Assembly: GCA_964016885.1 (NCBI GenBank)
Contig: OZ024754.1
Coordinates: 36,208,001-36,272,000, forward strand
Direction of reading: 5' to 3'
Length of the DNA stretch: 64,000 bases
Source: Eledone cirrhosa
Taxonomy: Eukaryota
The notes under the pieces were generated by a model. It made no database searches. It worked only from the letters and a program-made list of their open reading frames with translations, and was not told the origin of the DNA. Within the stretch, counting starts at the first letter, position 1. Each line of letters opens with the position of its first letter. The position numbers and the translations under genes are program-made. Positions 5,491 to 52,243 of this stretch are shown piece by piece.

Positions 5491-6439
5491 AATTCTCTAA
5501 CTATTCAGTCACGCAACCTAAGATTCCACGCAAGGGAATCGAACCCGTGACCTAATGATCGCGAAGCGAAATTTGTAAGCATTCGATTCCGCTGCATTCA
5601 CAGCAATAGATATGAAAGATATGCTAATACAATTAACATGGCGCGTGTACAGAATTAGAGAACTGTTTGCTAAGCTCCTACTTATTATTCTCCAGAATAA
5701 CGTCGCCGTCTTTAACATATTGGTAAATTAAGATGCTGGGTTCATATCGATATATTATAAAGAATAAAGGCCTTCTACACATCGATAAATTGATGATCCA
5801 TTCTGGAAATAATATAAAACTCGTCACCATTTGCATGACTTCACAACTATTACCATGGCTTGTAACATCAATAGGAAAATACCGCTATGTTATCGCAATA
5901 ATCATCAATATTGTCGGCATTTTCCTTGCTAAAAAGAATTGCGGTGTATTTCGATGCAGGCAAAAGCTCATAAAGCAGCGTAAATTAAGCGTTTAAAAGA
6001 CAATTGGGATAACTTGGTCAGATTAAATTGTTGGCGAGCAGCTATGAGGAAATAATGTGGTCAAGTAAAGACTATGTATTCATATGGCTCTATTATGTAT
6101 TACACAACTGCAGTAATATATTAAATAAGAAGCAATGTAGCTTAATGGGTAGAGATATATTGAAAAAAAATGTATATTTTAAGCCGCCGCATTACTGATG
6201 AAGTATTAATAATAGTTGAATAAGTTGTTGTAAAATACCTCTGGAGACAAAAGAAAGTAGAAAGAACCGTCTTCGAGAACCGAACCCCGCATCTGTCGTA
6301 TACCGGTATACGACTAATTATTCATAGATCAACTCCATCATGGCTGCTTTTCAAAAATCAAACATACTGTTAAATTTCACCGTTACTTCGTAAACGAGCC
6401 AATGTTTTTTTTTCACCTAACATGTGCATGTGTATGTGG

Positions 6440-7947: not shown

Positions 7948-9090
7948 TGTCATCATCATCATCATCGCCATCATTGTCGCCGTCGTCGTCGTGGTCATCA
8001 TTAACACTACTACTACCACCACCACCATCATCACTACCACCACCACCACCATCACCACCACCATCATCACCATCATCACCACCATCATACTACCAATACC
8101 ACCATCACCACCACCATCATCACCACCATCACACTACCAATACCACCACCAACACCACCACCACCACCACCACCACCACCACCACCATCACCATCACCAC
8201 CACCATCATCACCACCATCACACTACCAAAACCACCACCACCACCACCTCCATCACCACCTCCATCACCATCACCACCACCATCATCACCACCATCACAC
8301 TACCAATACCACCACCACCACCACCACCACCACCACCACCACCACCATCATCACCACCATCACACTACCAATACCACCACCACCACCACCACCACCACCA
8401 CCACCACCACCACCACCACCACCACCACCACCACCACCACCACCATCACCATCACCACCACCATCATCACCACCATCACACTACCAATACCACCACCACC
8501 ACCACCACCACCACCACCACCACCACCACCACCATCACCACCACCATCATCACCACCATCACACTACCAAAACCACCACCACCACCACCTCCATCACCAC
8601 CTCCATCACCATCACCACCACCATCATCACCACCATCACACTACCAATACCACCACCACCACCACCACCACCACCACCACCACCACCACCACCATCACCA
8701 CCACCATCACACTACCAATACCACCACCACCACCACCATCACCATCACCACCACCACCATCACCACCACCATCACACTACCAATACCACCACCACCACCA
8801 CCACCACCACCACCACCACCACCATCATCACCACCATCACACTACCAAAACCACCACCACCACCACCTCCATCACCACCTCCATCACCATCACCACCACC
8901 ATCATCACCACCATCACACTACCAATACCACCACCACCACCACCACCACCACCACCACCACCACCACCACCACCACCACCACCACCATCATCACCACCAT
9001 CACACTACCAATACCACCACCACCACCACCATCACCACCACCACCATCACCACCACCATCACACTACCAACACCACTACACCACTACACG
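7885..9090. repeat. (CAC/CAT)n tract with higher-order spacer CATCACACTACCAATAC
   Basis: Spacer recurs more than 10 times; explains the 411-aa and 367-aa P/H/T ORFs. Confidence 0.92.
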
Positions 9091-9432: not shown

Positions 9433-9502
9433 TATTTTATTATGCGCATTTCAAAAACAAACATCATCATGCAATAATATTTGTGTTTTCATCAGATAAA
9501 AC
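9433..9502 (-). ncRNA. Type I hammerhead ribozyme (inverted copy)
   Basis: Reverse complement of 9590-9660. Confidence 0.75.
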
Positions 9503-15264: not shown

Positions 15265-15925
15265 TCTGACTGTACACCAAGCCACCAGTCTGTTCCGTCC
15301 GTCCGTTCGTCTGAGAGTCTTGCTTGTGTATCTGACTCTTCCGTCCGTCCGTTCGTCTGACAGTCTTGCTTGTGTATCTGACTCTTCCGTCCGTCCGTTC
15401 GTCTGACAGTCTTGCTTGTGTATCTGACTCTTCCGTCCGTCCGTTCGTCTGAGAGTCTTGCTTGTGTATCTGACTCTTCCGTCCGTCCGTTCGTCTGACA
15501 GTCTTGCTTGTGTATCTGTCTCTTCCGTCCGTCCGTTCGTCTGACAGTCTTGCTTGTGTATCTGACTCTTCCGTCCGTCCGTTCGTCTGACAGTCTTGCT
15601 TGTGTATCTGACTCTTCCGTCCGTCCGTTCGTCTGACAGTCTTGCTTGTGTATCTGACTCTTCCGTCCGTCCGTTCGTCTGACAGTCTTGCTTGTGTATC
15701 TGACTCTTCCGTCCGTCCGTTCGTCTGACAGTCTTGCTTGTGTATCTGACTCTTCCGTCCGTCCGTTCGTCTGACAGTCTTGCTTGTGTATCTGACTCTT
15801 CCGTCCGTCCGTTCGTCTGACAGTCTTGCTTGTGTATCTGACTCTTCCGTCCGTCCGTTCGTCTGACAGTCTTGCTTGTGTATCTGACTGTACACCAGGC
15901 CACCAGTCTGTTCCGTCCGTCCGTC
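15265..15925. repeat. 46-bp minisatellite, about 13 copies
   Basis: Unit TCTGACTCTTCCGTCCGTCCGTTCGTCTGACAGTCTTGCTTGTGTA (starts 15331, 15377, ...), bounded by a direct repeat TCTGACTGTACACCARGCCACCAGTCTGTTCCGTCC. Confidence 0.95.
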
Positions 15926-47593: not shown

Positions 47594-47820
<227 letters not shown>

Positions 47821-47822
47821 TA

Positions 47823-48023
47823 AGAACGAGTAGGACCCCGAAGCTGAGCTCAAGCCGTTTCGACGGCTAATTCTGGACTAAATGGATGTATGTATTAGCC
47901 GTCGAAACGGCTTGAGCTCAGCCGTCGGGGTCCTACTCGTTCCTATTACCCACTCTACTACCCTAAGTATTGAGTACTTTGGTGCGTTATGGTCCACCTG
48001 GTTCCTTACCACATTTCCTTCGT

Positions 48024-48025
<2 letters not shown>
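47823..48025. mobile_element. Family B fold-back copy
   Basis: Short arm 47823-47878 inverted against 47896-48025; hammerhead 3' half at 47904-47926. Confidence 0.8.
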
Positions 48026-48109
<84 letters not shown>

Positions 48110-48239: not shown

Positions 48240-48330
48240 ATGGCTTCTACAGGACTCGAACTGTTTCATTCGGGCTTCCTTCCTGATGATTTCTCCCGAA
48301 TGAAACAGTTCTAGTCCTGTAGAAGCCATA
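48240..48330 (+). mobile_element. Small fold-back with hammerhead-like core
   Basis: 35-bp inverted arms; CTGATGA (48283) - ttc/gaa stem II - GAAAC...GTC (48316); stem I next to the core is not well paired. Confidence 0.5.
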
Positions 48331-48421
48331 TATATATTTTTTTTTATATATATATATATTTATCTGTATATATATATATATATAAGTATGCATGTATACG
48401 TACATACATATATGTATACAG

Positions 48422-51400
48422 ACGTTCAACTATCTGGCAGATGGGTAAACGGTGCTGATGATAGCTAACAAGCTTGAAACTAGTACATCGTTCCTGTGTC
48501 AGTGTTGAACAAAAAGGTGACGTGGTTGCCTTAACACCGTATGGCATAAATTCAGGCTGTTCAGTTTGTTTACAAACGAACAAAGCGACGTTAGCGCCGC
48601 TAAACTGATACGTGCATATATGTATGTGTACCTGTATGCATATGTATGTATATATGTATATATATATATATATGTGCATGCTACTGTACGTCTGTATACA
48701 TATATGTATGTACGTATACATGCATACTTACATTTAAGTAAGTGCCATACTAAGAGTGAGAAATGAAATTTCGTTTTCATTTTGTTTCAATTTATCGTTT
48801 TCGGTATGCCTGACCGATTTAACTCACTCAATATGCAAATTAGGCTGCTCAGCCGTTAATTTTCATAAGGAAAGTATATACTTTCGAACGTTCAACTATC
48901 TGGCAGATGGGTAAACGGTGCTGATGATAGCTAACAAGCTTGAAACTAGTACATCGTTCCTGTGTCAGTGTTGAACAAAAAGGTGACGTGGTTGCCTTAA
49001 CACCGTATGGCATAAATTCAGGCTGTTCAGTTTGTTTACAAACGAACAAAGCGACGTTAGCGCCGCTAAACTGATACGTGCATATATGTATGTGTACCTG
49101 TATGCATATGTATGTATATATGTATATATATATATATATGTGCATGCTACTGTACGTCTGTATACATATATGTATGTACGTATACATGCATACTTACATT
49201 TAAGTAAGTGCCATACTAAGAGTGAGAAATGAAATTTCGTTTTCATTTTGTTTCAATTTATCGTTTTCGGTATGCCTGACCGATTTAACTCACTCAATAT
49301 GCAAATTAGGCTGCTCAGCCGTTAATTTTCATAAGGAAAGTATATACTTTCGAACGTTCAACTATCTGGCAGATGGGTAAACGGTGCTGATGATAGCTAA
49401 CAAGCTTGAAACTAGTACATCGTTCCTGTGTCAGTGTTGAACAAAAAGGTGACGTGGTTGCCTTAACACCGTATGGCATAAATTCAGGCTGTTCAGTTTG
49501 TTTACAAACGAACAAAGCGACGTTAGCGCCGCTAAACTGATACGTGCATATATGTATGTGTACCTGTATGCATATGTATGTATATATGTATATATATATA
49601 TATATGTGCATGCTACTGTACGTCTGTATACATATATGTATGTACGTATACATGCATACTTACATTTAAGTAAGTGCCATACTAAGAGTGAGAAATGAAA
49701 TTTCGTTTTCATTTTGTTTCAATTTATCGTTTTCGGTATGCCTGACCGATTTAACTCACTCAATATGCAAATTAGGCTGCTCAGCCGTTAATTTTCATAA
49801 GGAAAGTATATACTTTCGAACGTTCAACTATCTGGCAGATGGGTAAACGGTGCTGATGATAGCTAACAAGCTTGAAACTAGTACATCGTTCCTGTGTCAG
49901 TGTTGAACAAAAAGGTGACGTGGTTGCCTTAACACCGTATGGCATAAATTCAGGCTGTTCAGTTTGTTTACAAACGAACAAAGCGACGTTAGCGCCGCTA
50001 AACTGATACGTGCATATATGTATGTGTACCTGTATGCATATGTATGTATATATGTATATATATATATATATGTGCATGCTACTGTACGTCTGTATACATA
50101 TATGTATGTACGTATACATGCATACTTACATTTAAGTAAGTGCCATACTAAGAGTGAGAAATGAAATTTCGTTTTCATTTTGTTTCAATTTATCGTTTTC
50201 GGTATGCCTGACCGATTTAACTCACTCAATATGCAAATTAGGCTGCTCAGCCGTTAATTTTCATAAGGAAAGTATATACTTTCGAACGTTCAACTATCTG
50301 GCAGATGGGTAAACGGTGCTGATGATAGCTAACAAGCTTGAAACTAGTACATCGTTCCTGTGTCAGTGTTGAACAAAAAGGTGACGTGGTTGCCTTAACA
50401 CCGTATGGCATAAATTCAGGCTGTTCAGTTTGTTTACAAACGAACAAAGCGACGTTAGCGCCGCTAAACTGATACGTGCATATATGTATGTGTACCTGTA
50501 TGCATATGTATGTATATATGTATATATATATATATATGTGCATGCTACTGTACGTCTGTATACATATATGTATGTACGTATACATGCATACTTACATTTA
50601 AGTAAGTGCCATACTAAGAGTGAGAAATGAAATTTCGTTTTCATTTTGTTTCAATTTATCGTTTTCGGTATGCCTGACCGATTTAACTCACTCAATATGC
50701 AAATTAGGCTGCTCAGCCGTTAATTTTCATAAGGAAAGTATATACTTTCGAACGTTCAACTATCTGGCAGATGGGTAAACGGTGCTGATGATAGCTAACA
50801 AGCTTGAAACTAGTACATCGTTCCTGTGTCAGTGTTGAACAAAAAGGTGACGTGGTTGCCTTAACACCGTATGGCATAAATTCAGGCTGTTCAGTTTGTT
50901 TACAAACGAACAAAGCGACGTTAGCGCCGCTAAACTGATACGTGCATATATGTATGTGTACCTGTATGCATATGTATGTATATATGTATATATATATATA
51001 TATGTGCATGCTACTGTACGTCTGTATACATATATGTATGTACGTATACATGCATACTTACATTTAAGTAAGTGCCATACTAAGAGTGAGAAATGAAATT
51101 TCGTTTTCATTTTGTTTCAATTTATCGTTTTCGGTATGCCTGACCGATTTAACTCACTCAATATGCAAATTAGGCTGCTCAGCCGTTAATTTTCATAAGG
51201 AAAGTATATACTTTCGAACGTTCAACTATCTGGCAGATGGGTAAACGGTGCTGATGATAGCTAACAAGCTTGAAACTAGTACATCGTTCCTGTGTCAGTG
51301 TTGAACAAAAAGGTGACGTGGTTGCCTTAACACCGTATGGCATAAATTCAGGCTGTTCAGTTTGTTTACAAACGAACAAAGCGACGTTAGCGCCGCTAAA

Positions 51401-51587
51401 CTGATACGTGCATATATGTATGTGTACCTGTATGCATATGTATGTATATATGTATATATATATATATATATGTGCATGCTACTGTACGTCTGTATACATA
51501 TATGTATGTACGTATACATGCATACTTACATTTAAGTAAGTGCCATACTAAGAGTGAGAAATGAAATTTCGTTTTCATTTTGTTTCA

Positions 51588-51591
<4 letters not shown>
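48422..51591 (+). mobile_element. Tandem array of a 466-bp hammerhead-containing unit (about 6.8 copies; retrozyme / PLE pLTR-like)
   Basis: Exact 466-bp periodicity (also seen in the ORF track); one type I hammerhead per unit; embedded in (TA)n. Confidence 0.9.
48448..48492 (+). ncRNA. Type I hammerhead ribozyme, first of 7 (others start at 48914, 49380, 49846, 50312, 50778, 51244)
   Basis: aacggug-CUGAUGA-uagc(uaacaa)gcuu-GAAA-c(ua)g-UA^caucguu; stem III region ACUAGU is palindromic; predicted cleavage after 48485. Confidence 0.88.
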
Positions 51592-51647
<56 letters not shown>

Positions 51648-51650
51648 CTG

Positions 51651-51717
<67 letters not shown>

Positions 51718-51730
51718 CTGTATATATATA

Positions 51731-51895
<165 letters not shown>

Positions 51896-51908
51896 CTGTA
51901 TATATATA

Positions 51909-52243
<335 letters not shown>

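Follow-up and report, generated by a model that had tools for sequence, protein, structure and literature searches.

A tandem hammerhead array in the Eledone cirrhosa genome and its probable mobilisation by Penelope-type machinery

A 64,000-nucleotide stretch of the Eledone cirrhosa genome (hereafter the window, to which all coordinates given without a locus label refer) contains seven hammerhead motifs arranged in tandem inside a (TA)n tract. The locus raises two questions: how a unit that encodes no protein came to be inserted there, and which form of its RNA was copied. Our best explanation for the whole, to which we assign a probability of roughly 0.55, is probable insertion into (TA)n by a Penelope-like (Neptune-type) endonuclease/reverse transcriptase (RT) that copied the RNA of the repeat, with a 466-nt circle as the template more probably than not.

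Architecture of the array and its hammerhead motif

The main arm of the array (48422–51593, plus strand) is made up of six 466-bp units starting at 48422, 48888, 49354, 49820, 50286 and 50752, followed at the same spacing by a seventh, starting at 51218, that comprises unit positions 1–374 (374 bp) and one extra TA. The first six units are letter-identical, including the length of their microsatellite, and TRF reports 6.8 copies with 99% matches. The tandem array of about 6.8 near-identical units at 466-bp spacing, described in the initial annotation, is thus confirmed, with a copy number that is that of the assembly and not of raw reads. The same annotation had let the element begin at 48422, a boundary that has to be abandoned: directly upstream lies an inverted short arm (48383–48425, minus strand), an exact 43-bp reverse complement of unit positions 267–309 (43/43 identical), which joins the main arm at a shared ACGT.

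The outer end of the inverted arm forms a "short" fixed terminus, and that of the main arm a "long" one. The last part of the main arm (51529–51593, plus strand, unit about 310–374) constitutes a "tail" that is missing from the outer end of the inverted arm. On the left, the target flank (48328–48382) is (TA)n with one TTTATCTG interruption, and on the right (51594–52060) it is (TA)n with several TTTATCTG interruptions. Because the insertion lies inside this microsatellite, a target-site duplication is undefinable here. Within the unit, a TA/TG-rich stretch (48608–48736, plus strand, unit about positions 187–315) is predicted to form a long hairpin, the microsatellite part of which differs in length among copies. 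The longest ATG frame on the hammerhead strand encodes 48 aa, and no RT/GIY-YIG ORF is present in the unit.

Judged by sequence, two stretches of the unit are candidate promoter elements. The octamer ATGCAAAT (48833–48840, plus strand, unit 412–419) is found in all six full units, carries a recurrent variant at none of its eight positions and also lies inside a predicted hairpin; a TATA-like stretch (48864–48880, plus strand, unit 443–459) is located about 40–60 nt ahead of the next core. The promoter of newt satellite 2 contains an octamer. This promoter has been described as snRNA-type (cited via PMC2220036). Furthermore, two sequencing runs (X4 and X5) each hold one near-unit-length contig on 48728–49098, of 470 and 486 nt, with 0–1 differences and a depth of 7–10; their organism labels differ from that of the main matching runs, their library type is unrecorded, and run contigs as such carry no information on RNA ends, strand or circles.

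The tract is shared with other elements. A small inverted-arm fragment of another family (48240–48330), with a hammerhead-like CTGATGA...GAAAC at 48283, adjoins the array, and its family also occurs in L063, L066, L070 and L079. Another element, represented by two short copies that contain internal inversions and have opposite orientations, flanks the array at 47820–48030 and 52055–52220. Taken together with the adjoining fragment, these copies give the (TA)n tract the look of an insertion hot spot. Elsewhere in the window, further type I hammerhead-like motifs of other families lie at 9495 (−), 9598 (+), 9821 (+), 17222 (−) and 63832 (−), the first two as a back-to-back pair, and a 46-bp unit is repeated in 13 copies with 99% matches (15293–15889).

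The core sequences of a type I hammerhead (CUGANGA, GAAA and NUH), with an open-ended stem I, are present in the unit. The seven cores are located on the plus strand at 48455–48485, 48921–48951, 49387–49417, 49853–49883, 50319–50349, 50785–50815 and 51251–51281, and consist of CUGAUGA, a U.U, stem II AGCU/AGCU, GAAA, the palindromic ACUAGU and the triplet GUA. Together with its extended stem I, the first hammerhead covers 48424–48510 and recurs every 466 bp, with a predicted cut after 48485. A 7-bp stem I is found in 7/7 cores, and when the unit was shuffled 20,000 times at the dinucleotide level, such a motif never arose. The core motif of the earlier description therefore stands in every unit; its stem II has to be redrawn as AGCU/AGCU, four base pairs with loop AACA above a U.U mismatch at 10.1–11.1, and because of this U.U the stem is without its usual closing pair. 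Stem III, the palindrome ACUAGU, has an A-U and a C-G pair enclosing two bases. From their sequence, the U.U base of stem II and a stem III of 1–2 bp are both weak ribozyme features. A comparison with Rfam, which the initial annotation had proposed, did return a match to Hammerhead_HH9 on 151 bases, a weak one whose 18.5 bits (E 0.022) fall below the gathering score of 52. When 8 kb were scanned, a hammerhead was absent among the 150 of 157 matches listed; the miRNA matches in that scan were discarded as (TA)/(TG) artefacts under their gathering scores.

In the folding model, a monomer would have to pay 5.4 kcal/mol to close the A-U of stem III, an event of probability 0.0, and the self-pairing of ACUAGU has an energy of −4.8 kcal/mol. 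Hammerheads with a small palindromic stem III have been described as acting as dimers (PMC4209133), and a dimer requirement, as predicted by modelling, fits the 2-bp stem III with its palindrome. The double hammerhead in a dimer transcript is not favoured by the same model (pair probability 0.02). In the lowest-energy monomer fold, core bases 31–36 are predicted to pair with 60–65, an inactive register. The fold of the circular monomer has z = −7.3; once the TA/TG hairpin is removed, the remaining linear 337-nt piece folds at z = −4.3.

Sequence variation was compared among 94 insertion groups. Variants recurring in at least four groups fall on 0/14 core and stem III positions and on 28/94 positions of unit 93–186. 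They do occur at N7 (T38C), in loop II (C48T), in stem I as G31A (G.U to A-U) and as A27T; C44T is also among them, which reflects the selection of loci for that change. Most of the sample was found via an exact core match, so that only 12–13 older-subfamily groups are informative on constraint of the core. Across 17 diverged copies, 92.7% of 493 cells are paired, with eight further pair types; covariation is thin, with a double change in 1/29 pairs. The pattern of variation in the core is compatible with constraint and is no proof of it.

Family-wide insertion ends and probable Penelope-type mobilisation

In the 3.0-Gb genome, the exact 39-nt core was counted 10,198 times (5,194 + 5,004), and the reversed 39-nt control does not occur at all. 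A 41-mer specific to younger copies has 8,204 exact matches. The genome-wide dispersal that the initial annotation had proposed to look for thus exists, with about 10,000 cores by exact-pattern counts. The family is young and protein-free, with a hammerhead motif in each unit.

We mapped 57 insertion groups in 52 loci, drawn from the window, one chance locus and, for the remainder, the first 100 listed places, on a single contig. Outer ends fall at unit 305–320 or 362–376 in 83 of 95 cases, although these two intervals span only 31 of the 466 unit positions; the fixed ends are about 60 nt apart. The true short end is probably at about 309–315, because BLAST alignments run a few bases into (TA)n. 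Among the 38 two-armed groups, 27 pair a short end with a long one, whichever of them comes first; two short ends never occur together, two long ends do so once, and ten groups are unclassed. The sole group with two long ends is a merge with an unrelated old neighbouring copy. The unclassed groups lie at a locus edge or are truncated, and two of them, L123 and L125, proved to be short plus long once extended. Nineteen of the 57 groups are single-armed, and the outer flanks are mostly (TA)n. The two-armed layout of the array in the window hence recurs in other insertions.

Some loci stand out. In L118 (2386–5840), two single arms face each other 1.25 kb apart, one with a short and one with a long terminus, a layout that is the reverse of the usual head-to-head arrangement. 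In L139–L141 (contig C10), three copies have an identical change of two bases at the cleavage triplet, which may reflect a segmental duplication or a small sublineage with a dead ribozyme.

Insertions of this form have been described for Penelope-like elements. Craig et al. (10.1101/2021.04.23.441226) report an inverted truncated arm, a 30–40 bp tail at one end and (TA)n targets, and Arkhipova et al. (PMC3846280) report the same arrangement of inverted arm and one-end tail. According to Frangieh et al. 2024 (PMC11167929), purified Penelope protein extends both strands from two internal RNA sites, and the tail is the interval between the two internal start sites. The fixed ends of the 466-bp family fit this mechanism, their tail measuring about 60 nt. 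Because the published signature of tail and inversion is present, mobilisation by Penelope-type machinery is well supported, and we consider it highly probable. The earlier proposal of a retrozyme-like element moved by a Penelope-like RT accordingly gains support from the roughly 10,000 dispersed cores, the inverted arms, the two fixed ends and the (TA)n targets.

The host genome contains frames of 844–1096 aa that combine RT with a C-terminal GIY-YIG, one of them with a CX4CxxC linker. Two RT + GIY-YIG families likewise terminate in (TA)n and have alternative ends, separated by about 40 and 65 nt. None of 50 loci, taken from 10,596 GIY-YIG candidates, holds an autonomous element with the 466-bp unit as its terminal repeat; the unit-like matches in 6/50 of these loci resemble separate insertions (one, L074, inspected in full). 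Some Penelope-like families at the surveyed loci carry hammerheads of their own. An ORF-bearing family (L060, L064, L065, L069 and L077) has in its 3′ repeat a hammerhead with a U.U stem II base and the palindrome AGUACU, and L077 contains two copies in opposite orientations. The 3′ regions of L061, L062, L067, L075 and L079 belong to ORF-bearing Penelope-like families with a degenerate hammerhead-like motif, which has TTGAAAA for CTGANGA and the palindrome ACCGGT and comes after CCAAT- and TATA-like words.

Which RNA served as template

In the mechanism that we propose, the array would be transcribed, possibly from the octamer/TATA block inside each unit. Neighbouring hammerheads are predicted to pair via ACUAGU, since the stem III of a monomer is predicted to be unable to close, and to cut after GUA. 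As in known retrozymes, ligation of the monomers would then yield circles, whose core is predicted to sit in a blocked register. For the next step the footprint is seen in the genome and the enzyme is putative: a Penelope protein would cut (TA)n and start a cDNA on either side of the break, using two fixed positions inside the RNA (unit about 309–315 and 366–374). The two cDNAs would vary in how far they extend, pass over the cut site scar-free and end up joined head to head, frequently via short microhomologies. Local duplication and conversion, for which the arrays provide partial evidence, would reshape them later.

Coral, mussel and axolotl retrozymes accumulate as circles, and their copying by Penelope enzymes has been proposed (PMC7229834). 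For the present family, the odds that a self-cut and re-ligated 466-nt circle is the main template are in our view about even. We put forward only tentatively the fuller picture of a viroid-like RNA circle, with its own promoter and a self-blocking fold, whose target-primed reverse transcription would proceed in rolling-circle fashion from two fixed starts and from both sides of the break.

Cut linear monomers were rejected as the main template, as neither an accumulation of inner ends at unit 65 nor scars at the tandem joints are seen. Genome-wide, 15 breaks were found at the cut boundary 64|65 and 20 at a control boundary, the latter being raw matches whereas cut-boundary breaks were inspected individually; the 12 of the 15 inspected comprise seven true inversion joints and five local changes. 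In the sampled groups, one of 95 inner ends falls at unit 60–70, and an indel at the cut site is seen in 0/154 passes, the same as at four control sites. The absence of a pile-up at the cut site therefore excludes cut linear monomers as the main template, and both a circle and uncut multimers fit it. With regard to the presumed transcription start, inner ends at unit 1–36 number 12/95 in the sample against about seven expected, an excess in the direction in which ascertainment also biases.

Variants that are private to one insertion and occur in all of its covering passes bear on the same question. There are 20 among 61 sampled groups, 12 of them in both arms, and they therefore point to a one-unit bottleneck at some step, which speaks for a circle; "private" applies within these 61 groups only, and such variants could come from homogeneous source arrays. 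A>G changes make up 6/20 of these insertion-shared variants and 23/262 of the single-pass variants (p = 0.01). No strand bias was detected among the 20 in this small sample (A>G 6 vs T>C 5, p = 0.77), and because of this the A>G excess is not taken as A-to-I editing.

The strongest alternative keeps the same two-sided Penelope priming and replaces the circle by an uncut read-through multimer; the hammerhead would then be slow, or a relic inherited from a Penelope terminal repeat, and a circle would be unneeded. A cut site free of end pile-up and scars is equally compatible with it, and two loci speak in its favour through ordered mixed units in both arms. In L121, a short linker, a normal linker and C44T follow one another in this sequence in both arms, almost in register when counted from the outer ends and without symmetry about the centre. 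A search for the C44T variant gave 20 matches, and among the 16 other insertions hit one (L154/155) has it in both arms, with linkers of 60 and 52 around C44T in register across the arms. The order of units in these two insertions therefore did not arise from a monomer circle without later conversion, and the mixed unit patterns shared by both arms, as read from the sequences, favour multimers or later conversion. For one Penelope element, moreover, hammerhead cleavage was reported to be dispensable in vitro, unprocessed RNA being the dominant substrate (PMC11167929), and Li et al. 2026 (10.64898/2026.07.22.740005) report that 8/9 Xenopus retrozyme dimers remained uncleaved in vitro.

Several observations nevertheless speak against an uncut multimer, which we consider the less likely template. 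Fourteen unselected two-armed insertions with four or more passes contain 143 unit-specific variants, of which 122 are single, 13 recur in one arm and eight occur in both. Seven of these eight belong to L121 and L123, the only two of the 14 with cross-arm sharing, and the eighth is a tie (L089, 2:2). In L123, one unit per arm (5805–6178 and 8212–8456) carries five shared and no private changes, compared with 4–19 in its neighbours; this shared tract looks like gene conversion between the inverted arms, and hence points to a later event. The insertion-wide fixed variants would require a one-unit bottleneck, and the core looks constrained across subfamilies.

A different route would let Penelope insert single units, the arrays then expanding in DNA by unequal exchange in the manner of minisatellites. 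It is discussed by Li et al. 2026 (10.64898/2026.07.22.740005), and part of it can be seen here: in L121, L123, L125 and L153, changes are common to units that lie two or three positions from each other within one arm, so that local duplication does occur. As the main source of the arrays, however, this route is very unlikely, since young, near-identical insertions are already multi-unit in both arms (5+2 passes per arm in L083, 4+2 in L110 and 5+16 in L121), the six units of the window are identical down to microsatellite length, and 122 of the 143 unit-specific variants are single. A dimer circle was rejected as the cause of the period-2 sharing, which is local and not array-wide, and the identity of the six units was likewise set aside as proof of rolling-circle copying, other insertions being equally identical to the array in the window.

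That the array is an artefact of assembly, or an inert satellite whose motif arose by chance, is extremely improbable: the six units are letter-identical in an assembly from which alone the array is known, yet the shuffled units lack the motif, an artefact is refuted at the family level by thousands of dispersed copies, which diverge to graded degrees and have variants specific to their loci, and 4,664 contigs of a public run (which may be the assembly's own sample) align to the unit and carry variants of the family.

Place among retrozymes and Penelope-like elements

The 466-bp repeat is a new family of an already known kind, the animal non-LTR retrozymes. It has two or more adjacent units that bear a complete hammerhead, no protein, and dispersed multi-copy occurrence. 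Animal non-LTR retrozymes are likewise described as non-coding tandem units with one type I hammerhead each (PMC7229834; 10.64898/2026.07.22.740005), and as having a GC content under 45%, thousands of dispersed copies and co-existing Penelope-like elements. At 466 nt, the unit is longer than the 170–400 nt given in PMC7229834 and falls within the 51–972 bp given in 10.64898/2026.07.22.740005. The axolotl retrozyme HHR_Amex1 is described with a similar stem III (one pair and a palindromic tetraloop), and HHR_Amex2, which cleaves weakly, with the same U.U base of stem II; the 466-bp family unites both weak features. For known animal retrozymes, cleavage and circles have been reported as demonstrated, whereas for the present family they are predicted. 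Newt satellite 2, as described in PMC2220036, likewise consists of a tandem hammerhead unit with a weak palindromic stem III and a promoter-like block within the unit.

The resemblance to Penelope-like elements of the Neptune/Nematis type includes the inverted 5′-truncated arm, the tail at one end, the AT-rich or (TA)n targets and a hammerhead with a small palindromic stem III (PMC4209133). Unlike these elements as described, the 466-bp family has no ORF, its tail measures about 60 nt instead of 30–40, and both of its arms can be multi-unit.

Two-armed insertions with fixed ends are a feature of the 466-bp family, and the retrozyme descriptions covered contain no counterpart: the literature searched, repeat databases and supplements being outside its scope, yielded no account of two-armed retrozyme insertions. 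In literature of the same scope (outside repeat databases and paper supplements), no description of this family from a cephalopod or octopus was found. The survey by Li et al. 2026 (10.64898/2026.07.22.740005) covers 35 genomes of vertebrates, insects and a coral.

The significance of the family lies in the insertion step of retrozymes. Re-insertion by Penelope enzymes acting on circles has been proposed (PMC7229834), and the link between Penelope and retrozymes is supported by co-occurrence and terminal-repeat homology (10.64898/2026.07.22.740005); here, the Penelope marks of tail and inversion are present on most mapped insertions. With a young family, known priming positions and RT-endonuclease frames in the same genome, the published in vitro Penelope assay could be used to test the choice between a circle and an uncut multimer. 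If the rolling-circle reading were true, thousands of young insertions in this genome would record the target-primed reverse transcription of a viroid-like RNA.
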